Origin: Amphiscolops sp. MND2022
Lineage: Eukaryota
DNA length: 64,000 bases
Direction: 5' to 3'
Assembly (NCBI GenBank): GCA_964187785.1
Contig: OZ076409.1
Location: 48,548,001-48,612,000, forward strand
The position numbers and the translations under genes are program-made. A model generated the notes under the pieces. The model had not been told where the DNA came from. It saw only the letters and a program-made list of their open reading frames with translations, and searched no databases. Shown here piece by piece: positions 4,004-60,600 of this stretch. Each line of letters begins with the position of its first letter. The first letter of the stretch is position 1.

Positions 4004-6098
4004 TATATTCAACTGAAAGCATCTTAATATTAAACAAAAAACTTTTTAAATTGAAAAATGATCCAGATTCAATATCATGGCTCATTCAACATCATGGCGC
4101 TTCATCCATCATCATGGTTATGATTAGAACCCAAGATTCAACCATGAAGATCACTGAGAGATGGCTTTGTTAACAATGAAAACATTCAGAATGTCTGTGA
4201 TACTTTATGCATTTCAGCCAAAAACAAATCAGGAATGTCCGGTAGAAATGAATATTGCTTACAAATATGCTTCCAGCAAAAAATGGGAAATCAACGAAAG
4301 TAAAATTTAGTTGATGAATCAGATTCGTATCGGTGTAATTATGCAACACTAAGTTGGGTACGAATTAACATTTTGTTTTTACTAAAACTCACCGATAGAA
4401 GTTGCTTAACGAAACTCAGCTGAAAAACATGAAGTATTTGAAGCTTTTTTGGGAAAACTTCCTCAAAAGTTTTAGCACTGATAGCATTCACTGGAAATTT
4501 TTTAAATAGATTTCTTGTCTGTTTTCGTTTTTGCAAAAACATTATATAACAAAGTTTTTAAAGCAGAAATGTGCTTCATGAAGTTTCAAAGACTTTCTTT
4601 TGTAAAACTTGTAAAACTAAAGCTTGTACCTGAAATGTACTCCCAAAGTCTTTTTCTTTGTTTTATCAACAAAGAATTTCAACAAAATCGCAATTTTGTC
4701 GAAATTGGTCAAATCTTTAGTTTTTCCATATTCACGATTTCTATAGAAACAGACGTCTTCAATTGTTTTCGGTAACTCTTTCGATATTTGAACACTATAC
4801 GCAAACATTCAAACTTCCATTTGCGAGAAACGTTTGAAAGCACTTAGATTTATTCAGCCAGGGACAAAACGTTTGTCGGTAATTCTACAAGACATTGAAC
4901 TAGTAATTTCAGTTCACCATTTTCTATTCTAATGATTTTTAAGAGCTAGCAGTATTGCTAGATAAATTAAAAATTATCCTTTTTCATAGTTAAATTCATA
5001 TGTTTTCATCCATGACTTCACGGATTTTCATCAATGATCATCCATGGCATCATTGCTGTTCATCCACGTTCATTCATAAGTTATGGGTATATTTACATGA
5101 TCATGACATGATTATCCGCATGGCTAATTCATAAATTATGGATGCATTATTAGTGGAAAGCCATGATGTCCTGTCAACCTGGGAAGGGGCAATGACTTCT
5201 TCATTCGCATTTGAAGGGAATGCTCTTGGTGAACGATTTCTTAGTAAACACTATTTCTCTTTATCTCTGTGAATGTCTCGTCTTTACTTTGCTAGACAGC
5301 TTTCGAGAGAAAACAATTGATGATTTCGTCCTGTCGGAAAAAAAACAAAAAACTGTTGTTTTATGTTTGTAGGAATCATTTAAAAAATACGATTCGAATG
5401 AAGTTTTTTTTACAATCATTTTACACCGTATTAGGGTCCTATGTGTTCAATGACATCAAAATCGTATGACTGGGATCTGAGAAACAGCAAAAATTAGTCC
5501 AAACGACAACAAAGTACCTAGTTTGTTTTACAATATTTTAATCCTTTTCCTACTCCTTTACTGCATATGCGGTTCTGGTTAAAATTTTCCAGCTCTCGCA
5601 GAAATTATAAGACTTCAGGTATTATTTGTTTTCTACAGCATCACACCGAGGTATCTACTTTTTGTGACACTTGTTAGCGTATTCGTGCAATCTTCTTTCG
5701 AAATTCCCAAGTATCACTCTCACGCCTTCTCTCACGGCTTCCAAAGTATCACTCTCGCAGATTCTAGTATAACCGAAGATCCACAAAATTGGATTTTTTA
5801 TTGTAATCACGGGATTCAGAATCCTAAAATTTGACATAATTGAGCTTCAATAGACTAATTTTATTTGATACTGTCAAATTTGGTGATCTTTCAACAAGCG
5901 AGATCTTGAAATGTTTTTCAGTAACACATCTGAAGCATTTCTAGTATTGTCTTTTCACTTTACTACTGTTAATCAAGTCACAATTTCAGGAAACCTAGTA
6001 AAGTTTTAAGATAATGATCACGTTTCTCAACCAAGAAGCATTGTTGCACTGCGGCGTTTTTAATAAACTCTTACTGTAGTAGTGGTACGATGACTTGA

Positions 6099-17378: not shown

Positions 17379-18743
17379 CCCGGGTTGACCCTCCATGGAT
17401 ATCTTAGTAAGATCTTGGCAAGATCTTGGAACAATCTTGGCTAAGATCTTGTCAAGATCTTGCCATGGTATTCATTTTGCCATGGTAAGATCTTATCAAG
17501 ACAGGCATGTATCCAAGAAAAATCTTACTAAGAATCCCAAGATGGCAAGAAAAATCTTAGTAAGAAGCCCAAGATGGCAAGAAAAATTTGCTACGAACTG
17601 CTTGATATAGAGAAAAAAAGCAGCATCAGAAAAATTTCAATTTAAAAGTTATTGAAATTCCAAAACTCACTTACAACTATAAAATACAAGAATCTATTCA
17701 ACCATTAGAATAACATCAAAAACAACTGAAATAATGTTTTATCATCACTAAAATAAAATCTATCATCTGAAAATCACCGGAATAGCATCTAAAAACACTG
17801 AATTGAGAACCGAATCCAGAGGAATATACATGGAATAAGATCTAAAATTCCCCAGAACCACGATATTTTTTCCAATTTCATAGAAAAACCCCTGAATGGA
17901 CCAAAAACCGTGTACGTCGGTTCTCGTTTCACTGTTACAAGATCTGAAACTCACTGGAATAATGACTAAAACCTCTAGAATAAGATCTAAAGTTCTCCAA
18001 AACGACAATATTTTTTCCAATTTGATCCTGGAAACCCCTAAAAAGGTCCAAAAAACTTGTATATTGGTTCTCATTTCAGTGTAATATAAGATCGAAAACT
18101 CACTGGAATAAGAACTAAAACATATGGAATAAGATCTAAAATTCCCCAGAACGACGATATTTTCTTCAATTTCATACAGAAAACCCCTGAATGGACTAAA
18201 AACCGTGTACGTCGGTACTCATTTCAGTGGAATAAGATCCTAAGCCACTGATCACTGAAATAAGGACTTCGATCTCTGGATTAAGATCTAAAAGTTCCCC
18301 AAGATGTCGATATTTTCGCCAATTTCTTGATAACCCCTAAAATAGTCCAAAAACCCTTGTAGGTCGGTTCTCAATTCACTGTTGTAAGATCTAAAACCAC
18401 TAGAATAAGTCTAAAATTACCTAGAACGACAATGATTTCTTCGATACTAATCCAGAGAATTTCAATCTTTGCAGGAAATCACCGGCAATCGCGGCAGGAA
18501 ATCGCGGAAAGACCCGGCAAAAGAATTATTATACGAATGTAGCTATTTTTAGCATTCTTGATCGAAATTTTGAAATCTTAGAATTTTTTCAATCTTAGTA
18601 AGATTCGATCTTGGAATAATGATACATCTTGGTAAGATCTTAGTAAGAATCTTGCCATGGGATCCATGGATGCCAAGATGTAGTAAGAATTTGGTAAGAT
18701 CTTGCCAAGACAGCCAAGATGCTAGTAAGAGGGTCAACCCGGG
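17379..18743 (+). mobile_element. Non-autonomous TIR DNA element A (TA target), with AAGATCTT subterminal repeats and an internal ~147-bp tandem array
   Basis: TIR CCCGGGTTGACCCTC at 17379 and its reverse complement ending at 18743; TA on both flanks; no transposase ORF. Confidence 0.88.
17832..18440. repeat. ~147-bp tandem array (about 4 units) inside element A
   Basis: GAATAAGATCTAAA-like starts at about 17832, 17978, 18126 and 18278. Confidence 0.85.
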
Positions 18744-25117: not shown

Positions 25118-26985
25118 CTCCCATTGCTGAGAAAACCATTTGCTTGTAAGAAGTAAAAATATCTGAAATACGCAGAAATTTGACTCTTAAAATACGTTTT
25201 TGTATCGAAAAATTTCGTATTTTATCCTTGGAAAACCAACAGAATCCGGTTTTTCACAAAGGTAAACAATATGGATAATTTTGTATAACTTCATTTCCGA
25301 ATAAAATATTTGGGCATCCTCGAAATCCCAAACAGAGGTTAAATAGACTGAAAAAATTTAAATGGCGAGAGTTTTGTTAAACTTTTGAACATGGCTAAGT
25401 CGAGCGAATTTTTGTGATCGAACTTTTCGATTCCCATCAATGGGATCATCGTTAGAAAAATTTCATCAATGCTCGTCCATGAAACTGCGATGGCCATCGA
25501 TGAACTGCGATGGGATCTCAGTCCGGTCTCTTCAATCAAATGTTATACCTTGCTAACAGAAAATTGCCTATCAATGTAAATCTGCATAGATGCTGATTTT
25601 TGTTGACTTCATTTCAGCTTTTTTTTCTGGCCAAATAGGATTTTACAATAAACTTCTGAATATGACTCTCTTGATAAGATTTACCATCGCAAAATGAATA
25701 CCATGGCAAAATCTTGACAAGATTTTGGCCAAGATTGTTCCAAGATCTTGTCAAGATCCTGCCAAGATCTTACTAAGATATCCATGGAGGGTCAACCCGG
25801 GTAGACATTCTTGAATTCCAAAGTACACTACACCTGTAAAACAAATCCCTTTCTATGTGTCCAAGATAGTTTGATTTAAACAGGAGTGTCGTTTTTTGTG
25901 AAACAAGCTTTGTGGACATTTTTGTTAACCAATCGCTAATTTTAGATGACCGAATATTTCGAGCAGTAATAACGTCTGAGGAATAACGTGTTAGTTAAGT
26001 CACACTCATTCCCTATCTTGAGATATTGAGCTTTGAACATTTATGAACGTCATTCCTGAAAATCTTTTAACCGTTATTCGCGCCGGCCGGCCCCCAAATA
26101 AACATTTTGTTGAGGAAGAAGTTTTTTCAATCAAAGACCTAGAAAATCATTGCAGAGTCTGGAAATTTTTGAGCTACGAAAGTCATTTCTATAGAAAATC
26201 CCATGCAAAAGAAATCTCGAAATTGCTGTTGTTTTATTTTCATAGTTGCGGATCTTTTCTCCATTAGTTTTCGTACCTTTTTCGCATGTCAATTTGTAAT
26301 ATTTTCATTTTAGTTTTTCGTTCTCTATGGAAAATTTCTCCTTGAAAAGTCATCAAAATAATTAGCACTGATGGTTTGCGAAAGCCGCAAATAAAATATT
26401 GATGTCGATTTTTCCAAACGCAATTTAGCTGCGCTTGGGGAATAGGAACTGCGTCATTAGTTTTCCGATCGCCTTGAAAGCAATTTTAGAGTGGAAAAAT
26501 AGCAAATATGTTCATTTCCGATCTTGATAGCAGATAATTTAATCCGTCGACTTCATGCATTTTCCAATTTTTTCATAATTTTATGAAAAACTAGGGGAAC
26601 TCATCGTTGGCCGCCGGGTTTCTCGTCACCAGTGACCATCCGACAATTTGCCGTGGTTATTTGGACCTGCGGTGGAAATATTCGAAGCTACGTTCAAGCT
26701 CTAAACAAAACATGCATAGTTAACAGCTTAGCATTTCACTTTCTTACTATCTACAGTTGCAAATTGAATATTGCTACTGAACTGCATTCGCATAGCCGTG
26801 GAGCTTCTTTGATACGACCCCGGGACCTTATAGTACTTCGAAACACTCTAACAACATTATTGAGTCTTGTCAATTTCAACTAAAATGTGTTGCTCAAGAA
26901 CCCAAGCAAATTGCATTTTTTCACGACAGCTTGGTAAATAAATTTTCAAATGAGTTGGCCTTTCATGGATCGTATAGAGGTCTCA

Positions 26986-27103
26986 GTACCCAATGTTACC
27001 TCTAGATTTTTTTAACGTTTCAATTATATCTTTGATCCCCGTTAGAGACCGAGTCAAAGATATAATTGAAACGTTAAAAAAATCTAGAGGTAACATTGGG
27101 TAC
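26986..27103. repeat. Perfect 50-bp inverted repeat with an 18-bp spacer
   Basis: 26986-27035 is the exact reverse complement of 27054-27103. Confidence 0.95.
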
Positions 27104-27440
27104 CTTTGTTACCCAAAGTCGGACTTTTGACGAAACGCCCGCCCGCAGTGAGATATCATGTAACTTCTTCATAGCCAGGCCACTTTTTAGCATGAGACTA
27201 CATGGAGCCTGCATGGCCAGGCATCGCATCGTAGCAACATTGAAGCGCTTTAAAAAACCTCTTACATCTCGAACCTCGAAATTTTCGCGAACCAAAATTT
27301 TGAAGACATATGTGTTTTACAATTTTTTTCTTGACAGCTTGTTTTCAGATGGCGTTTTTTATAACAAAAAAATGCTCGACTTCTAGAATGGCAATTTTTT
27401 GTAAGACCACGGAACGTCAATTTTGCAGACACGTCGCTTG

Positions 27441-46260: not shown

Positions 46261-46655
46261 ATCGAAGCTTTCTTTTCTTCGAACTTCTCAGCGTTTTTAT
46301 AGTGCATTAGTTATTCTTGAGCCTCAAATTTATGTAGTTGTAGAACAGTTCGGGGCGGAAAATATCCCGCTCCTCAGCGGGCGTCTTGTTAATTAATCCT
46401 ATCCAAAAATATTCTGTATAGGGTATGCTACCGTATTTATCCTGTTTATTGGTGTTCCGGTCTGATCGCCTTATTTTATTAGTAATATCGTCACCTTGTA
46501 GAATTTCGCCATTCGTATGTATTTGGATGACGTCGTTTTCCGGATCAGTTATGATACGTGCGTATCTCCCGCCTTTCTGGTATGTATCGTAGCTCTTTCC
46601 GATCTCGTCCGGCATTTCTTCTTCTTCTTCTTCTTCTTCTTCTTCTTCTTCTGTT

Positions 46656-49600
46656 TTATCGCCTTGCGGCATCAGTATCGGTTCCGTTTGTCTTCTTCAG
46701 TAAACTGAGGGTTTTGCATTTGTTCGTTGCTTGGTGTCTTGACATGTTTGTAAGCGCTATCAGGGAATCGCATCTAGGGCAGACTCCTTTCTTCGGGACG
46801 TATTTTCGAGCTGAAGGCAAGTCTTTCTGAGATGTTTCGAGACACTTTTTCATGTGGTTCTTCAGTGTGGCTTCTTGTGTGAAAGTCTTGCCGCATTTCT
46901 CGCATTGAGTTTCTTTTTGTTGCGAGTCGTGAAGCCTTTTCCTGTGTATAGCTAGGCCTGCTTTGCTTCTGCACACTTTGTCACAATTCTCGCATTGAAG
47001 GGTGTTTTCGGTTGGTGTTTTCGTCGATTCCCTTCTGTCTCTGATGATTTCATCGGGTTGGATTACGTGGTTGTGGCCTTGCTGTCTCTCATATTCTTCG
47101 AGGTGTTTTGCTCTGTTCCGTACGAGCGCTCTCCACTTGGTTCGATCGGTTATCAGGTGTTCAATATTGTTGGGATCCTCGCCGGCTTCATTGATAAGTT
47201 TGCGCCAGTATGTTATGGTGTTTCTGTGTGGGAGTTTTTTCGTCTTATTCTCTTCTTCTAGTTTGCTGTACCATCCTAGCACTGCCTGTTTCACCAACCT
47301 GTCATCGTTCATTCTCAGAACGTGGCCCATTCTTAGGAGGTGAGCTTCATCTATCTTCGTTCTGAGAGATGTTACATTCAGTAGTTCTCTGATGTCCGCC
47401 ATAATTAAGTGTTTCTCTTCCATCTGGCGTAGAGGTTGGCCATTCTTATCGCTCTAGATGTATCTATATCTCTTGTCCATGAAAGTCTGCATCCTTTTGA
47501 TCTCTTTCAGCTTGAACGGGCGAACCGATGCATTGAAGAGCATAGTGCTCTCTATGCAGGCTTCCACTACTTTGGCCTGTGTTCGCTTGGTCAGACGACA
47601 TTTCAGGAACCTCCTTTTGATGGTAGCTTAGTTCTTTCCCGCCCTTTGGATGCGTTTTGTTGTGTCACTATTGTTTTCCATCCACGTTCCAAGCATTCGA
47701 ATTTCTGTGTTGTTCTTCTCGTCGCCAAAAACCATTTTCGCCTCTTTGTCTAAGTTCGTTTCGTCTTCAAACTCGAGGAGACATCTTTCCACTATCCTCT
47801 TTCCCTCTTCTACTTCATCGTTGTGACCGATTACTGTTGTATCATCAGCGAAGAGAGAGAGAGCGTGAAAATTTTTTGGCTTGCATCCGAGTTTTGTTGA
47901 CCTCTGCGTTGTGGAGGAAATCTCTTTCCTGGTAAATACGACCATCTGATCCCGCATTGTTTTCCACTTCCCCGGCAGCTTCCTCCCGCTTGCTCTCTGC
48001 TATGCGAATAGCTGCTTGGTGATATATGTTGAAAAGTGCGGGTGAGGTAGCACACCCTTCCCTCAATCCTCTTTCTGGGTAGAATGCTGTACTCACACCC
48101 TCCGCACCTTTGCCCTTGTAGCTCGTGTGCTCGTGGAGGTCCATTAGTTTGTTTATTATGTTCTGTGGCAGTGAGTATCTTCTCAGCAGGGCCCAGAGGA
48201 TCGGCTTGTTTACTCGAGGGTATGCCTTCCTCAGGTCCAGTAATATGGCTTCTGCGTTGTCCGTGACATTTCTCGACCTTCGATACTGTTTGATGTCCTC
48301 ATTTATTCTGACGAAAATCTGTGTGGCGTCTGCGGTAGAGCGGTCAGCCCTGAAACCTGCCTGGTTCTCATCGAGAAGGCTGAGTTGCCCGGACCATTCT
48401 CGTATTCTCGTGGCAAGGACTCTGGCCAGTATTCTGCTCATAATCGGAAGTAGACAAACTCCTCTATAGTTGTTCATGTCCTTTTTGTCACCTTTTTTTA
48501 GAGGGCAATTATTTGTCCGACTTTCAATGATGCCGGCCACTCTTGAGCTCTATCTTCCCACATGCATTGTATTTTCTGGATGATGACTCGTTTGACCTCA
48601 TCGTCGGACTGTTTGATGAAGCGAAGTCTTATTACATCTTCACCTGCCGCCGAGTCTTTCATCTTGTTCATTTCCGCTATTATCTCGGGCGCGTTCAGGC
48701 TTCTCGATACCTTTTCGTTCGCTGCTTTTATGATCTCCTCTCCTACTTGAGAGGGACTGATTCTCTCCATTAGTGGGGCTATTTCCAGCGGGTCATTTTC
48801 ATGACGCTCAGATGTTATCTTCTGGAGGTGGTTTTTGAACTCTTCCTCACTAAAAAGGGGGACACTTGAGCTGTTATTGTAGTTCCTTCTTCTTTGGAGG
48901 AGGTTGAGTGTTGCGTACATTTTCCCGATCTGTCCTTTGGCGCACGCCTTTTTGCATTCCTCTGCCAGTTCGTTCCACCATTCTTCTTCCCTCTCTCTGA
49001 TTTTCCGTTTGTAGATTTTTCGATACGACTTGATCCGCTGTTTCAGGTTTTCCATTCTGTCGAGGTTATTGTCCGCTCGGTTCTGATTCCGTTCTTTCAG
49101 CAATGAAGTCAGTTTCTTTTGAAGTTCTCCGTGTTCATCGCTGTGTCTCGACATCCATGGATTTACCTGTCTGTTGCGGCGGCCACATACTTTGGCAGCA
49201 GTTTCTCCAATCATTCTCTGCAACTTTGTCCAGTCCTCTCTATCGGTTTCCGTCATCTGCTCGATCTCCTTCTTCGTTTCCACTTGGTATTTCGATGTTA
49301 TGTTGGGGTCACGTAGTTTTTCCCAATCAATGTTTGGGCATCGCTTTTTGAAGAACTTCCGTTTCTTCGTACTCAGAAATTCAGGTGACATTACGATCAT
49401 CTTCGCGTTGTGGTCGGAGAGGTTTCGGTGGTTCGCTGTTGACATTTTGCGAATTATTTTCTGTTTGTCTTTCCATTGCGTCGCAAAACCGTCCAGCTCG
49501 TACCACCTCTTTAAACTCTTGTTAAACCACGTGCCTCTGAAATTATGCGGGTACTGCGAGTTTATCCAGACGAGCTCGTTCTCTGTCAGCCAATCCAGAA

Positions 49601-50429
49601 GGTCTAGGCCTTGTGCGTTGGATGATCGTAGGCCAAAACGGTTTTCTTCCGCAATGTGGGCGTTGAAATCGCCGCCCATCAGGAAGAATTTTCCGTTTCC
49701 GTGTGTCGTCATTATTCTTTCTACTTCACTTCTCAGATTCTCCAGATCTTTCTCATAGTTTTCCGATCCAGCCACTGGTTGGTAAACTGATAGAATTATC
49801 GAGTGTTCTAATTTTATCCCTGTGACTCTTTCTGTCGCGAACCATTTGCGACCCTGGGATTCCCATAAGGCGTACATTTGTTCAGACAGGAGTACTGCCG
49901 TTTTTTGGGAGTAGATCAGGTAAGAGATCTTTTTCTCGTGTTGGTACGAGCGTATCCTTTTGTCTCGTGTGTTCAGTTCACTCAGGAGAGTGATGCTCCA
50001 TTTCTCTTCCATGCATCTTTTGACTTGTTCGCCGAATCTGCTACCGAACAGGTTCGCCCTGTTCACATTCCAGGTGGCTATTTTTATCTCTGTTCCCTCT
50101 AGTTGGTTTATTAAGGAAATCTTTTGCTTCTCTCTCTTTATTTCTCTTCGTTGTTTCCTTCTACAGCTCGTGTGTCCCGGCCCTGGATTGCTTTCAATGT
50201 CTGTTTCCAGAGCAGAACATTTGTAAACCCTCTGATGTCTTCGGTTGACAAACGTTGCCGATCGGTTCGCCTGTTTTCTTTTTGAAGAGGTGGACTGGTC
50301 GGCTAATCCAGCTACCCTCTGTTCCGGAGAGGCTCTTCCAGTTAGTACCTGGTATGTGCCCCCCAGCCTGAAATTTTTTTTGTCGTCAGAGACGTCCACT
50401 ACGCACCATGCGAGGAGGTTGAATTTCAT
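46656..50429 (-). pseudogene. LINE ORF: APE endonuclease, reverse transcriptase and C-terminal C2H2/C2HC fingers, frameshifted
   Basis: APE motifs ATWNV, SVYQP, GGDFNA, ELD, LSDH; RT motifs NYRGVCLL, QAGFR, DLRKAY, GLREGC, LFADD; fingers CENCDKVC...H...H, CEKCGKTF...H...C and CPRC; split over at least four ORFs. Confidence 0.93.
50178..50201 (-). other. 2A-like ribosomal skipping motif DIESNPGP
   Basis: Matches D(V/I)ExNPGP, in frame, about 30 aa upstream of the APE domain. Confidence 0.75.
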
Positions 50430-50437
50430 CGCCCAGC
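50370..50437 (-). ncRNA. HDV-like self-cleaving ribozyme at the LINE 5' end
   Basis: Reverse complement: GCTGGGC gat GAAATT ca ACC TCCTCGCAT GGT GCGTAGT GG a CGTC tct GACG a C aaaaaa AATTTC = P1, P2, P3, L3, P3', P1', P1.1 GG, P4, J4/2 C, P2'; the first G coincides with the TSD junction. Confidence 0.82.
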
Positions 50438-53400
50438 CCGGCATTTCTTCATCAACTTCGTCATTGTCATCGTCCTTGTCTTCCATATCTCACTCAGCTC
50501 TTCTAATTTGAACTATTCTCAGATTGCCGTTGCAAATGTCCCGTAGGATCTCGTCTCGCTCTCAGTACTTCCTGTCAAGGCCGCAGAGGCAGTGGCGGTT
50601 TTCGGGGGTGTTCTGGCTGACATCGCGGGCGCCGTTGTTTTCCGGTTCTTTCTGTCGGTCTGAAAAAGTGGAACTGAACTGAACGTTCGGGGAATTGTTG
50701 CCCGTGTCTGTTTCTAGTGTTTTCGGTTCCGCTGATTGCGCTTTGTACTTTTGTTTGGAGTCTATCTTCTACAAATTTTTGATTATGATTCTTTTCAACA
50801 AAGTTGGAGTGATATCTTACCGGAACTTTTTTTTGGTGATTTCATTTTCGAGGCTAGCTGTTTCTCTTCGGCTTTAGTTCTTGCCATAATCACATGGTTC
50901 AATGTTTCTCCGTCTGCATCTCGACCGACATAGATCGGTATCTTCGGTCTACTTGGTGCTGAAACATATAATTCTGATCAGTCTGATAGGTATGATTATC
51001 CATCTTTTACACTATTTGTGAAATCGGTTCTCATTTTCTCCCGTGGTGTATTTAAAATGGTGTTTTATTTTGTGCGGTTTGTACTTTTCTGTTTTCTAGA
51101 TTAGTGGTAATTAAATTTTTCATTGTTTTGCTCGTTTGACTGCTCCGTTCTCGGTATCCATTCGGGGTGGGCAATATTCGATTTCAAATTTTCGGTTTTC
51201 ACAAAAATTTTTATATGCATTTGATATGGATGCTCTCCTCTGACATTATTTTTTTGGTACTCCGTATAAATGAAGTTAGTTGTTAAGATTTGGAGGTTTT
51301 GCAAATTTTCGCCGTCGGCCATCTGCTGAAACGATTTATGCCGATCAATATTTGTATCTCTCCATTCAGATTCTTGTTATGCAATTTTCCAGTAAAATCT
51401 AATAGTCGTTCTTGTCACGGTTCAATTGATGTTTCTAGTTTACCATATTTGTAAAGGAATTAGGTATTTAAGGTGCTTAACTGTTGCAAGGCAGGCTGTA
51501 CAATCCTTACCTTCATGCTCAATGTTTTCCGGAGTTCCAGCCTACAGAAGATTTTTGCTTCGGCTATCATCTTTGCAACTCCTGATTGACCGAATGGTAA
51601 TACGTCCAGTATTCGCCTTCGTGAGTCGTACGAGATTGCTTTTTGGTTGTCTACGAAGATTAGACCCCAGCGAAATGACAGTTCCTTGAAGACCGGTTTC
51701 TATCCTTCCGGTGCTGTATCTCTGTCTTCCCGTCTCATGCTTGACAAGACTCTCGTTCTCTTGGCATCGGTTGCCGTCTTCGATATAAGTGTCTTCAGGT
51801 CCAGCATAAAATCAAATCGTGCTCTTTTGATCCTCTTCCGTAGTTTAGTTGTTCGCCGTAAGCTTGATTACAATCTGATTGATTCGTATATAATGGGCTT
51901 CATTCCCCTCTGTGTGATACTTGCTCAATTCCACTACCGGTAGGTTATCTCCTCTCATAACAACGCTCTCTTCTTTGGTATCTACAGGACTTTGCTCGTT
52001 AACGATTTCTCCATCGTCCGGAATTTCGGGTTTTTCTTCCTCTTCTTCGGGCGCTGCCTTCAGTGGTTGGTATCCACCCCTAAACGGTTAGCTCTTTGTA
52101 AAAACTGCTCGTCAATTTCCGCAGTTTCTTCTCAGCTGCATTTGCTTGGTCTCGATGGTGCGAATACCGTCCGCTGTGATTTGGGATCATATCTCCGCAT
52201 TACTCCCGGTCACGCTAGTGTCTTTCTTCTCTCCACCAGTCATCTAATTTCGGGGCTCTTTTTTCTTCGGCGAATAATCTCCATAGTTTCCCTGGTGGCG
52301 CGGCAATGATAAACGTTTTCACGGTTCGTTTTTGAATTTGAATTTTCTTTAGCTTTGAAAGATGACTCCACGGTGCTAATATCAGACTGCCAGGATGTAG
52401 TTGTCTCGTTTTTTTTTCTGGATTTTGTTCACATAGTATTCATTCTGGAATGTTCCATTTGTTTGTGATTGGTTGGTTTCTTTCTCCTTCTTTTCTCTTT
52501 TGTCATCCGTTTGTCTTCGGTTTTCTGTTTTTCGTGTTGTGATTGGTTGGCAAACATCGAGCCATATTTCGCGTTCAATTGTGCGTCTTCGGTTAAAACG
52601 GTAATTACTTATTCTTCGTCGTATTTGTTTTCTGATGTCGGTCCGCCTACCAATTTTCTGCTCAAGAAACTGATAATATTTGAGTACTGCCGGCCACATG
52701 TTGAACAGCGATATGAAAATATGCTGAAGGATCTAACCATCTGGTAACACTTGCGCTGTGTTCATGCTTGTTACGAATCCGTTTTATTAGCGGTTCTAAT
52801 GCTTGGTGATCTGTATAAGTGTACTTTCGTTCCCTAAAGGTATAATCCATTTTTTTCTAATACCTAAATTACCGCCAGTCTTTCTAGTTGGCCGATCGAA
52901 TAGTTATTTTCGATATTGTTTTAGTATTTGCTACCGAATGCGATCGGTTCAATTTCCCCGCTATCTTGTTTCTGCCACAGTGTAATTCCAGGTAGTGTTT
53001 TTCTAGCGTCTGTTGTAACAATATTAAAGTTTTTTAAATCTTCTGCATAATGTGCCTAGCATGGTGTTTTGGTTAAAATCCGTTTATTTTGGTTAAAATC
53101 ATTTTGTTGCTCGTCTCCCCTCTCTCATGGTTCATTCTTTTCCAGCAGTTTCTGAGTCTGTCTGTCTTTTCCGGTAACTTCGGTAAGAGTTTTGCTAGGT
53201 ATTGAGTTGCGCCGAGAAAGGATTTTAAGGTGGTTTTAATTTCAGTATCATTCATCTTGTTTTTCATTCAGTTTAATTCCGCTTTCGTCAATTTCATGAC
53301 CCAGCCACATTGTTTGTTCCAGGAACAAATTGGATTTTCTTTCACTTTCCCGGTATTTTTTACTCGTATTTCCCCGCGGAATCTTACTTTGTTCTTATTC

Positions 53401-55303: not shown

Positions 55304-56259
55304 ACACTGTATAGACAATGCATACACGGTGCTGTATATCATTTGGAATACCTTTTACGTCGCGTTATAACTACTTTCCAGGGTCCAATAGGACAATTAA
55401 GTTCGTTTTAAATGTCGTGTTCTGATGATTGCAGGATATAAATAGAATGACGTCCTTTTGACGTAATGTTATTTTTGTATTTTTCCTACCGTGATTTTCA
55501 TAAAAAGTAGTGTCATTCTTTCATTTTCGAAACCAGGAGTGCAATAAGAGAATTCGGAAGAAGTGGTTTCTACCTTCACAGAGTACAGTTGCTTCTTAAT
55601 TGTACCTCTTTTGCCCAATTTGTAAACTTTTCATCCACAACTTTGATCATCAACCGTTTGATTATTTCACCAATTCACTGAAGAAATTCAACTGATTTCT
55701 CTTTTGCAAACTGATGTTTTCAATCGAGTAAAGATGGGAAATAAGAGAAACAGACGTTCTAGAAGATTAGAGACACCGTCCCCTGAGAGAGAAGTCAATA
55801 ATACCCAGTTAGAAACACCCAACACAGGTAATGAAACTTTAACTAATTTAAATGAGAATGTACAAGGAAATCTAGGTGATAACGTCCCAGAAAATCAACT
55901 AGCTGAACCCAGTCAAACTAGCAACGAAATACAAGTTTGGACGCAGATTTTAGAGCAAAAAAGCAATGACAGAATTACCAAAATGAGGGAAGAGATGGAC
56001 AATAAATTAGAGTCCATCTTAAAGGAAATTAGATCCAATAAAAGCATGTCAACAACAACGAATCCCAGGTCAGAAGCAGCTGAAGTCCATAATTCACAAC
56101 CTTCGGGATCCAAGTCTATAGGAGTTCACGCATCTAACTTTGAAAATACTGACTCAGAAAACGAGGACTATCCTCTTAAAGCCTCAGGTTCTAAGGATTT
56201 GAAACATCCTGCAAGACCTTTGTACCGAAATGAGATAGACCTAGACTCTAGGAGACTCT

Positions 56260-56732
56260 AAGAGAGAAGGTTGCGAGTTTTTGTTTGCCAGTTTTTCTAT
56301 TGCTAGTGCAATTTGGTTAACTGGGTCGAGTGACTTTGCTGTCGGATTTGTCGTGTTGTGGTCTGCGTGGGATCCTGTGGTTTCATTTAAAGACTGAGGG
56401 TTTTGTGAGCTCTGTCTATGGAGTTGTCGGTTGGCTCCTGTCACCATGTGATAATCCTCTTCCTCAGAGTCCTCATTTGAGATCATTGTTTCGTCGGACG
56501 AAACATTGATCTCAAATGAGGACTCTGAGGAAGAGGATTATCACATGGTGACAGGAGCCAACCGACAACTCCATAGACAGAGCTCACAAAACCCTCAGTC
56601 TTTAAATGACACCACAGGATCCCACGCAGACCACAACACGACAAATCCGACAGCAAAGTCACTCGACCCAGTTAACCAACTTGCACTAGCAATAGAAAAA
56701 CTGGCAAACAAAAACTCGCAACCTTCTCTCTT
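56260..56732. repeat. 473-bp palindrome (236-bp arms, 1-nt spacer)
   Basis: 56260-56495 is the reverse complement of 56497-56732, with about 3 mismatches. Confidence 0.95.
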
Positions 56733-57656
56733 TCATCCGAAAAACACACTAACATTCAATGGGAAAAATGAAAAAAACGAGAAATTTGAGTATTTCGAAG
56801 ACTTATTCCATACAACTCTTCGAATGCAGCCGAACCTAACAGAAGACATGAAAATAAACCATTTCCATGCCCATCTCAGAGGTTTAGCACTCAGAACATT
56901 TAAAAACATCCAACGTACCCCAACTACAACTTTGGAAGATATCCTAAAAGTCTTCCGCCGGAAATACGTAAAACCAGAATCTAGTGCATCCGCGAAACAC
57001 AGATTCAACAAACTGTCATTTGAACCCGAAAATCAGAAACTTCCAGATTTCCTTGAGGAACTCCAAGAAAGTGCAGAAAAGGCTTTTGGTGATAAAGCGC
57101 ACCAAATGATAGAAAACCTACTCTATGCAAAGATGCCCCCTCATCTGAAAAAATCAATTAATCAGGCATACTTAGTGAACGGATCATACGACCAAATCGT
57201 TAAACATCTTGAAAGGGAGATGGAACTTAACGGTCTCGAAGCTGACGAACCTCTTGTCAAAACTCAAATGACTGTTACTAAAAAAGACCAAAAAACCGAA
57301 AAATCCAACAAAAAACAAACTGAAAAACCCAAAACACAGACTCCAAAAACAGTGCCAGATAAAACCCTCAAAAATGACCAATGCCGTTACTGCAAAGAGA
57401 CAGGTCACATGATGGCTGATTGCCCCAAACTGGCAAAACGACGAAAGCTTGAAGAAGACCCAGAGGCTGAAAAATGCCAGAACTGTAACACACCTGGGCA
57501 TCAAGAAGAAAACTGCTACTTTGGTGCTAACATGGAAAACCGCCCACCCAAGTGGACCCTAACGGAAGCCCAAAAGAAAGTCATTGAGACATACAAACAA
57601 GCACGAAAACCGATAAAACCCAAAGTAGAACGACAACAACAATCCTCTTCAAAGGA

Positions 57657-57663
57657 TTTAAAC
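57657..57663 (+). promoter_or_regulatory. -1 ribosomal frameshift slippery site T TTA AAC
   Basis: X XXY YYZ heptamer in the gag frame directly before the gag TAG; the pol frame is -1 and open across it. Confidence 0.85.
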
Positions 57664-60600
57664 TAGAAACGCCACGCCCTAAAAACCAGCACTTACAGTT
57701 GAACGACACGAGCCCGCAAGACGACTGGCAGCGTCATGTGGACACAATAAGCATTCAACTCAAACAACTTACAACCGAAACAGACACAAAACCTCAAGAC
57801 CTAACAGACTCCGACGACAATGAACCTCCCCAAGAGTCCTATTATCAACTCTTACGGGATGCACCTGACAACTACCTTTCAGACAATACACGAACGACTG
57901 AGTCGCAGACAAACAACACACCAGAAAATCACCACACAACAACCCTTCCTTGCAATGAACAAAAACAACCCCTCTTAGATGAAGACATCTCTAACCATAT
58001 ACAGTTTGACCATGAACGAAATCTGTCATACCTACCGATTTCAACTTCTCTGACTTTGAAGCGAAAACGACACATGTACTATATGCCGATGGACTTCGAA
58101 AAACTCACTCTTGATGGACTCATCGATACAGGAGCCCTGACAAGTGCAATTTCTGAACAGGACCTAAACAAAATCAAATTACTTGCCAACGAGGCAATAA
58201 AAGAGACTGGCCCACCGCCAAATTTCCAAATTATGGTGGCCAATGGTCAATTAGAAGTACCAATCGGCACAGTACTACTTGAATTCGAGGTCGCTGACTT
58301 CATGTTACGAGAAAATTTCATCATAATGAAAAACCTTCCAAACCCATTAATCGGACTATGCTTCCTCAGAAGAAATAACGCAATTTTTGATGTCACTCAA
58401 GGCATCTTAACCTTCCCATATCTCTCAATGCAATTAAAACCAGACTCACAAGTTGCTATACGACAAGCAACGCCTCTATTTGCCGAAAACACATACACTT
58501 TACAACCAGGAGAAACCCTCGCAATAGCAAGCAGAATGCCACACCTGTTAGACCACGATGCAACAGGAATAGTTACACCTTCACCACAATTTGAAAATCA
58601 CGATAGCATATTTATCACATCGTCACTCAGTACGGTTAATAACAACGCTATCGGGTACCAAATCATTAATTTCTCTGAACTCCCACACACAATAACCTGT
58701 GATACCCATTTAGCGGATTTCAAAATCCTCACTCCAGAACAGATAAAACATATACAACCAGTAGATCCTGCGATGTTATCCTTCATGATACAACACGAAG
58801 AAACAACTGAGATCTACATTAATGAACTCCTGAAAGTCCCTCCGCAAAACCCAGACCAAGAATCATATTGGTTTCCCACACCAGAAGACCCCGGGGATCC
58901 AACAACATACACACCAATCCAACAACGAATATATAACGAACTCCTTGAACTGAAGGAACTCGGAAAACTCAACCCACAAGAGAATGAAACATCCAGAAAA
59001 TCATTTCTTTCAAACTTTGACTGGTCTGACACAACACTCAGCCCAGAAGAACGACAACAAGTCGAAGAAATTCTCATTGATTTTCACGACATTTTTGCAA
59101 GACATCGCTTTGACATCGGAACAAATCGCAAATTCAAAGTAAAACTTACACCCAATGACGACAGACCAGCTTATAGCCAAAGTCTACCAACCCCAATCAA
59201 CCTGAAAGACGACATCACAGTAGAACTAGCACTTCTACATAAATATGGAATCATAACAACACTACCGTTTTCGAAATACGCAAGTCCCATCTTCGCACAA
59301 CGAAAACCAAATGGCCGACTCCGCCTTCTGGTGGACCTTCGAAAATCAATAACTTAATCACAGAAGACTACATCAACAACAACCACCCGGTGAGCACCTT
59401 ATCGGATGCAGCACAACACATGGCTGGAAAGAAACTTTTCTGCAAACTCGACTGCTCCCAGGCTTACCACTGCCTTCAAATGGCAGACTATCAATCCATT
59501 CAGATGCTTGCTTTCAATTTTGCAAGCCGAACTTTTGCTTACCGCAGACTTGCGCAAGGACTGAGCAGATCGCTCTCGGCATTTTCAAGCTTCATGAGAG
59601 AATACCTCGATAGAGCCATTAAAGCCGATCAATGCGCACAATATGTAGATGACATCGGAGGAATTGCAGCAAATGATGCAAAACAATTATGTGCGAACAT
59701 CAGAACTGTGTTCGAGTGTATCCGAAACGCTGGATTGAAACTCACCATGTCCAAGTGCCATTTCGGAGTCAAACAAGTCGACTTTCTGGGCCGTACAATT
59801 ACACCAACAGGAGTTGCTCCTCAAGCCGACAAAGTCAAGGACTTCTTGTCAAAACTCAGATTCCCCAAATCCAAAAAAGCACTTCAGCGCTACATTGGAT
59901 TCCTAAACTATTATCGGAACTACATTCCACGCCTCTCTGAAAGACTATCCCCGTTTTTCCAGCTTCTCAAAGAAACGACCAAATTCTACGTACCAACGAA
60001 TCTAGTAGAAGAATTCACCAACCTAAATAAACTTCTTGAAAATTCATGTCAGTTAGCTTTGAGACAACCCCTCAAGGACAAACAACTCATAGTCATGTCC
60101 GATGCAAGCTTCACAGCTGCAGGATATGCTATAATGATAGAAGATGATCGAAGCCAAAAACTTCAGTCTAAACGCAAAACCTACGCACCCATAGCATTTG
60201 GGTCCAAAACTTTTAACCCAACACAAACCAAAATGTCTATATATGCAAAGGAATTCCTCTCCATATAATTTGCGTTTGTTGAGTTTGGTCACCTCATGTG
60301 GGGAAGCACTTTCCCAGTCATCGTGTTCACTGATAATAGATCAGTAACACGCTTTTTCCAAGCAAAACTCATTCCCCCAGCACTCTGGAACGCATGCGAT
60401 TATGTTTTACAATACAACTTTGTAATCGCCCACGTTGCCGGTTCGATGAATACTGCAGCTGATTTTCTGTCAAGGACAGAAGTAAACCCGATCGAGAAAC
60501 TCGAAATGAGTATACGGAACGATATCCAGACGAAAGCAATAGAAGTCAACATACAATCATCTGGAATAGTAGAAGAAGAACAAATCTACATTCTCCCCGA

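Follow-up and report, generated by a model that had tools for sequence, protein, structure and literature searches.

The 64,000-nucleotide stretch of Amphiscolops sp. MND2022 DNA analysed here (the window) carries on its minus strand a full-length copy of an RTE-like LINE whose 5' end joins an HDV-like ribozyme fold, a stop-free leader and a 2A-like motif. The explanation of this arrangement that we favour, with some confidence, is that of a promoter-poor RTE-like LINE in which the ribozyme would release the element RNA from read-through transcripts of the host by cutting at nt 1, the leader would be translated, and the 2A-like motif would split this leader from the endonuclease-reverse transcriptase protein at least part of the time. 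The pairing of a ribozyme with a 2A motif has precedent in Ingi elements. Judging from the sequences compared, what is likely new is its independent recurrence in a broad RTE-related lineage, together with a StopGo-like core two changes away from the canonical one and a target motif at a fixed distance from the insertion site.

An RTE-like LINE and its broken copy in the window

The copy, which belongs to a family referred to here as family A, is 3.8 kb long and occupies positions 46622..50437 of the window (minus strand, as for all features of the element below), with its exact 5' end at 50437. It terminates in a (GAA)n tail (46622..46651) and is flanked by a 13-bp target site duplication (5' copy at 50438..50450, 3' copy at 46609..46621), its 5' junction being confirmed by two empty paralogous host sites. 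The coding region comprises an APE endonuclease domain beginning with IKIATWN at about 50087 (49407..50087; PF14529, E 5.6e-6, slightly below the curated cut-off), a reverse transcriptase (RT) recovered in pieces and bearing a GLREG signature (47685..48486; PF00078), and three C-terminal zinc fingers of the C2H2/C2HC type (46689..47000; Pfam). A search of NCBIfam returned no match, and the PDB yielded nothing beyond weak matches to L1 and R2 and to generic zinc fingers. The window copy is 98.1% identical to an intact paralog (L052) that encodes 1,254 amino acids; relative to this paralog, its coding frame is broken near 48498, 47973 and 47863 and interrupted by an in-frame stop at 47456-47454, upstream of the zinc fingers. 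The window copy is therefore dead. Seven further copies (L007, L008, L011, L012, L014, L015 and L018) are internally deleted with an intact 5' end and have kept the ribozyme, the shortest being L018 at about 200 bp; the leader is duplicated in tandem in L007/L010. Elsewhere in the window, the stretch 55662-59357 (plus strand) contains reading frames of an LTR retrotransposon (Gag-like and protease/RT-start), and long inverted repeats with sub-threshold matches to miRNA models lie at 26983-27104, 25704-25764 and 17394-17476; these repeats probably represent MITE-like sequences or simple palindromes.

Over about 1030 columns, post-RT region included, the intact protein aligns collinearly with that of a classical RTE (24% identity, E 3e-54), and L1 and R2 score far below it. 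The comparator is one that we take to be an RTE from hallmarks of the clade and from its host range, in place of a database label. The defining arrangement of the RTE group, a single APE-RT ORF collinear with RTE, was thus found. In an 82-row RT tree, midpoint-rooted and built without an Ingi, L1 or CR1 outgroup, the lineage forms a branch separate from classical RTE, and family A falls within a subclade made up entirely of D(V/I)E-type members. The RT motif G-L-R-E-G, in which the usual QG reads EG, is present in 114 of the 120 members listed and in none of 120 classical RTEs; in the window copy it lies at 48030-48070. A set of distant relatives (L163, L165, L166, L170-L172 and L176; P0217 and P0230) shares the EG signature, with no NPGP in the frames examined. 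Membership in Ingi was rejected, as Ingi entries compared by eye read GVPQG in place of GLREG and a Pfam search at an E-value of 0.01 recovered no RNase H. RTEX and Proto2 were likewise rejected, since the element has no separate ORF1 and a single ORF runs from its 5' end; where an esterase or a PHD finger is present, it lies in frame behind the 2As. The RTE-like assignment of the original prediction is supported by the RT motif and the collinearity. Because the element is RTE-like and not Ingi, the design known from the trypanosome element L1Tc was likely arrived at a second time, independently.

Ribozyme head and leader

The ribozyme fold spans nt 1-69 of the element (50369..50437), G1 being its first base. 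It consists of P1 (nt 1-7/34-40), P2 (10-17/62-69), P3 (19-21/31-33) and P4, with UCCUCGCAU as L3, GG at 41-42 and C56 at the catalytic position (50382). In the intact paralog, the nested double pseudoknot is complete (P1, P2, P3, P1.1 and P4, the cleavage-site G and the catalytic C) and scores 25.0 with our strict descriptor. This descriptor misses the window copy, which differs from the paralog by private changes at nt 36 (50402; a G in this copy alone among the heads) and nt 62 (50376; A for G) that break one P1 and one P2 pair, respectively. An Rfam scan of the whole window yielded no ribozyme match; on a short stretch, RF00094 (HDV_ribozyme) aligned in register with 14.2 bits (E 5.4) for the window copy and 19.6 bits (E 0.45) for the paralog, both below the family's gathering score of 50. 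Since the Rfam scores are weak, the case for the fold rests on the position of the junctions and on covariation between families.

With regard to the junctions, a homolog search with the 5' 451 bases returned 21 matches, namely the window itself, the two empty sites and 18 other heads, all of which begin at ribozyme nt 1-2, with flanks diverging at G1. The coincidence of the junctions with G1 is an indirect sign of self-cleavage. The descriptor recovered the fold in families A, B, C, D and H (20.5 in B, 21.4 in C and D, 25.5 in H) and in six of eight NPGP-bearing metagenome loci (17 of the 42 loci examined), with scores of 19.7-30.7; the background maximum was 13.6 in 60 shuffles, and 18.8 was the best of 17 background matches in the 64-kb window. 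Families E and G also failed the strict descriptor, E being recovered by a looser one, and family F fitted with a bulged P1 only. With regard to covariation, 81.8% of the cells in an alignment of eight heads are paired (96% in P1), a value reached by none of 500 shuffles; in this alignment P2 is poorly aligned (58.8% paired), and one of its rows had served to derive the structure. Eight pairs have changed on both sides, and the covariation score was reached by none of the 500 shuffles. In a simple alignment of six heads the stems came out of register, and nested folding energy was unremarkable (z +0.6 to +1.2), this measure being uninformative for a pseudoknot. The HDV-like fold of the original prediction therefore stands as a structure that starts at the junction and covaries between families; for the window copy, it has to be qualified by two broken pairs and sub-threshold Rfam scores. 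On these grounds the family's ribozyme very probably cleaves itself 5' of G1, and self-cleavage of the mutated window copy would be less probable.

An AUG at nt 9 (50427..50429), lying across J1/2 and P2, opens a stop-free leader of 84 codons (50178..50429) that ends with the last P of DIESNPGP; no Met is found between this motif and the start of the APE domain in the window copy. The layout first proposed for this locus (5' end at 50437, AUG at 50429, 84 codons to DIESNPGP, then a basic stretch and APE with no intervening Met) is reproduced in every coordinate. Across the lineage, the frame from G1 to NPGP is free of stops in 10 of 13 representatives and in nine of ten families (shuffled controls, p 0.003-0.052 for each), with leader peptides that cannot be aligned between distant families. 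The AUG is less constant. Its in-frame position is nt 9 in family A and in two metagenome families with about 46% protein identity, nt 48-53 in families C, F and one more, and nt 141 in family D; in families B and E no in-frame AUG precedes the 2A. The AUG within the ribozyme at nt 9 thus holds for one sub-lineage and is shifted or absent elsewhere, and a universal nt-9 start was rejected. A leader kept open while its AUG varies or is missing fits the notion that the 2A fixes the N-terminus of the protein wherever translation starts, and is the strongest point in favour of this part of the original prediction. The leader looks translated, with no fixed start: translation of it is highly probable from these patterns, via the nt-9 AUG here and via other, non-AUG or host starts in sister families. 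An AUG lying 8 nt from an uncapped 5' end and within a pseudoknot would be a hard start site.

The 2A-like motif and its expected activity

The candidate 2A is the 19-mer QRVYKCSALETDIESNPG-P (50178..50234), with a predicted skip between 50181 and 50180. Its terminal DIESNPGP (50201-50178), the only NPGP in the six frames of the window, conforms to the core D(V/I)ExNPGP, for which about 6e-8 matches are expected by chance per 90 codons. The basic stretch that follows it (50121..50162; K+R about 46% in 30 residues across relatives) likely serves nuclear import or nucleic-acid binding. The motif is conserved among paralogs as anticipated, being unchanged in all seven young copies tested. It is also widespread. 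The lineage protein set consists of 120 listed of 187 matches, 61 of them with at least 40 residues before APE, and among these NPGP precedes APE in 57 of 61 and is lost or decayed in four; the named hosts among the matches listed are two acoels and an amphioxus. No NPGP was found in 120 classical RTE proteins, most of which have short N-termini, nor in 30 other RTE-type loci of the genome. The 57 motifs divide into T(I/V)H (33), T(I/V)E (9), S(I/V)H (7), D(I/V)E (6) and G(I/V)x (2), so that, among the matches listed, the canonical D(V/I)E core is kept by six relatives only and the dominant core, T(I/V)HPNPGP, is two changes away from it. PG-P is invariant, and the rise in conservation is one-sided, being confined to about 14 residues upstream of it. 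The consensus of 38 T/S-class peptides reads E(I/V)KxRLxT(I/V)HPNPGP. In one comparison, KLETDVEKNPGP (window 50178-50210) and KLETVHPNPGP (L057, L143) differ by one residue of register, and the T class may have arisen through loss of D.

Whether such motifs would skip depends on context. The available text of PMC12846837 reports single variants with T at p12 or H at p14 to be each about 90% active. In that work Li et al. allowed no more than a single change in the cores they searched for, and one-change cores likewise make up class X of bioRxiv 2026.09.24.754024; carrying two changes, the T+H double variant falls outside both searches. The same preprint, as far as its available part goes, describes substitutions of G11 and of L6/L7 as abolishing P2A and F2A activity, and bioRxiv 2026.06.17.732966 reports active eukaryotic 2As mostly with at least three Leu. 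Many LINE 2A-like motifs, including E-to-H forms in Crack elements, were inactive in the accessible portion of Odon 2013 (PMC3708506). The window copy has T at p11, C and S at p6 and p7 and a single Leu in -19..-10, and so lacks both the G or H at p11 and the Leu-rich upstream tract of class A 2As. The original prediction had been doubtful about the residues upstream of the motif; this caution was justified, as T11, C6/S7 and the one Leu predict weak skipping. Taken over the lineage, skipping is likely; in the context of family A, its chances appear evenly balanced.

Two other readings of the motif were weighed. NPGP might mainly stall ribosomes or cause drop-off, damping ORF2p output with little clean skipping. 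This is unlikely, though not without backing: 59% of tested ORF2p-linked 2A-like peptides lower protein abundance (Snell and Matreyek, bioRxiv 2026.06.17.732966, in the part available), 7.4% only of retroelement-linked candidates are highly active according to the corresponding part of bioRxiv 2026.09.24.754024, and the 2A context of family A is non-canonical. However, the reduction class of Snell and Matreyek is Leu-rich, whereas 30 of our 38 T/S-class peptides have no or one Leu in p1-p9; PG-P is invariant, and sister family G separates its domains by three canonical 2As, placed around an SGNH esterase within one ORF. Less probable still is that the motif is a non-skipping relic, or a linker or protease site, within a single chain started at the nt-9 AUG. 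Family A indeed has neither G11 nor the L6/L7 pair, its AUG would make a skip unneeded, and some relatives have lost or decayed the motif (the four of 61 above, among the matches listed, and one decayed family), but family A shares LETD(V/I)ExNPGP with a metagenome family of 46% identity, although the rest of the two leaders cannot be aligned, and conservation is one-sided, upstream of PG-P. A motif that would split leader from enzyme remains the reading we prefer.

Two side observations concern motif-bearing relatives. At L211:2710-4501 (plus strand), in the family of L068, the ORF encodes in order a 2A, an SGNH/GDSL esterase, two further 2As, a PHD-like finger and APE; this element sits directly after a (GAT)n run, and the descriptor gives no clear ribozyme. 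A decayed metagenome family (L144-L146, L150 and L167), found behind (GAT)n microsatellites, has an HDV-like head that appears altered by eye and the decayed motif NDVNENPES.

Target motif and comparison with known elements

Upstream of the window copy, the host motif GACGATGA (50467..50474, minus strand) lies 37 bp from G1 and 24 bp from the duplication. We analysed 52 flanks (57 minus four duplicates and one element-derived flank) from four families whose APE regions share about 32-35% identity. In 23 of these flanks GACGA begins precisely at -37 (10/16 in family A, 2/8 in B, 6/13 in C and 5/15 in D), and it lies within -43..-29 in 32 of 52, compared to a mean of 1.5% and a maximum of 9.6% in control windows; the -37 window was picked after inspection of family A, and several flanks share host repeats. 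The other 20 flanks have no GACGA near -37. The spacing recurs in families F and H, and two of five metagenome flanks have an exact GACGA, the other three carrying GATGA or GAAGA at -37 or -38. Of 21 loci, seven have a duplication of 13 bp and 13 have one of 12-16 bp. One host repeat has received both the window copy and L064, and there a 3-nt indel between motif and site shifts the junction by 3 nt and keeps the distance of 37 (by eye). L066 has insertions of two different families (560-900 and 4640-4990) in separate units of a single tandem host repeat, spaced about equally from GACGAAGC. Among eight copies lacking the 5' end, GACGA was found 24 bp before the duplication in three and about 21 bp before it in one, the remaining four having no usable duplication. 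The persistence of the 24-bp spacing in copies without a ribozyme suggests that targeting acts on the DNA and is linked to the first nick, not to the ribozyme. Quite probably, the protein works by a ruler mechanism, recognising GACGA and cutting the bottom strand 24 bp further on in the downstream direction.

Alternatively, the motif could help to join the LINE ORF to host ORFs in the same frame, with host starts being borrowed and the 2A freeing the protein. This is very improbable. In its favour, most families have G1 at codon position 2, so that the -37 motif is in frame (GAC GAT reading Asp-Asp in the LINE frame), families B and E lack an in-frame AUG upstream of the 2A, and the LINE frame is open for at least 40 codons from the junction in 15 of 52 flanks. 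Against it, another frame is likewise open in 15 of 52, the three frames upstream of the motif reach at least 40 codons in 13, 8 and 14 of 52 (one flank being inflated by unknown bases), the LINE frame is the longest in 18 of 52, and G1 falls at codon position 3 in family B and one metagenome family. That the frame is open into host sequence, as had been proposed, is correct for the window copy, where it extends to a stop at 50492-50490 and includes two in-frame host AUGs (50486 and 50444). This is not general: past the target motif, the openness of the LINE frame does not exceed that of the other two, and in-frame capture of host genes was rejected as unsupported.

The closest parallel to this element is L1Tc/ingi of trypanosomes. 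In the available part of PMC5814959, L1Tc has a ribozyme, a 2A, C-terminal fingers and an upstream GAxxAxGa pattern, in agreement with the earlier statement that it pairs a 2A-like motif with an HDV-like ribozyme. Like the present element, L1Tc/ingi has a single ORF, an HDV-like ribozyme as its first ~70 nt, a 2A-like motif in frame just upstream of APE, C-terminal C2H2 fingers, a short duplication of fixed length, 5'-intact internally deleted derivatives and a target pattern, GAxxAxGa, which GACGATGA fits. In contrast, the RT here is of the RTE type (GLREG against GVPQG), there is no Pfam RNase H and the tail is GAA; the motif begins 24 bp ahead of the nick (19 bp in the L1Tc pattern as printed), no TATG-type consensus is seen at the nick, and the AUG lies within the ribozyme. 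As to animal elements, the Odon 2013 clades with 2As comprise Rex1, L2, L2A, Crack, CR1 and Ingi, an active one being in an Aplysia Ingi (PMC3708506, available portion). These share with our lineage a single ORF with the 2A 40-80 residues from its start and before APE and, in some, a PHD between 2A and APE; unlike here, where the dominant core is T(I/V)HPNPGP, RTE is not among their clades. The strings GLREGC, YPRVN and YRGVCL are absent from the Odon 2013 RT set in the form available, in which line breaks could conceal one.

Both RTE and Ingi are listed among ribozyme-bearing clades in the accessible part of PMC5786205, and HDV-like ribozymes of such elements are described in that of PMC6765202 as promoting translation. 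The classical RTE clade (Ruminski 2011, as conveyed by these two sources) also has a 5' ribozyme, bipartite derivatives and a microsatellite tail; the present lineage differs from it by its own RT branch, the EG signature, NPGP (57/61 against 0/120, among the matches listed), three zinc fingers and the fixed-distance target motif. R2Bm similarly combines a 5' HDV-like ribozyme with an upstream motif at a fixed distance, its RUM motif 22-34 bp before the nick setting the cut distance (PMC10499050, in part), but it has a restriction-like nuclease, N-terminal ZnF/Myb domains, a second motif at the cut and an rDNA target, whereas the element described here has an APE, C-terminal fingers and dispersed targets. 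The parts available of PMC12338488, PMC3894237 and PMC7245038 have no bearing on RTE. In the literature covered we found no account of the ribozyme-2A pairing in an RTE-like lineage, in keeping with the original prediction, nor a description of this target motif; for both, Ruminski 2011, Repbase, Dfam and preprint supplements may contain members. Tentatively, and at somewhat less than even probability, all of these features may be read together: a widespread and as yet undescribed RTE-related LINE lineage would have independently built the whole L1Tc design, with a 5' ribozyme, a disposable translated leader, a StopGo mostly of a new class, LxT(I/V)HPNPG-P, that one-mismatch searches would not see, an upstream target motif, and an APE-type nick 24 bp from a bound GACGA.

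How single-ORF LINEs make protein without a promoter or a cap is an open question, and families that differ only in the place or presence of the leader AUG permit a direct comparison. The T(I/V)HPNPGP series provides dozens of natural peptides for studying which exit-tunnel contacts are able to stand in for D12 and E14 of StopGo. If the nick is indeed placed by a motif 24 bp away, this would be an exception to the view that the APE domain alone chooses the site, and a compact element of 3.8 kb that exists in an intact natural form, has sharply defined 5' ends and follows a known spacing rule would make a handy model for RNA-templated insertion.
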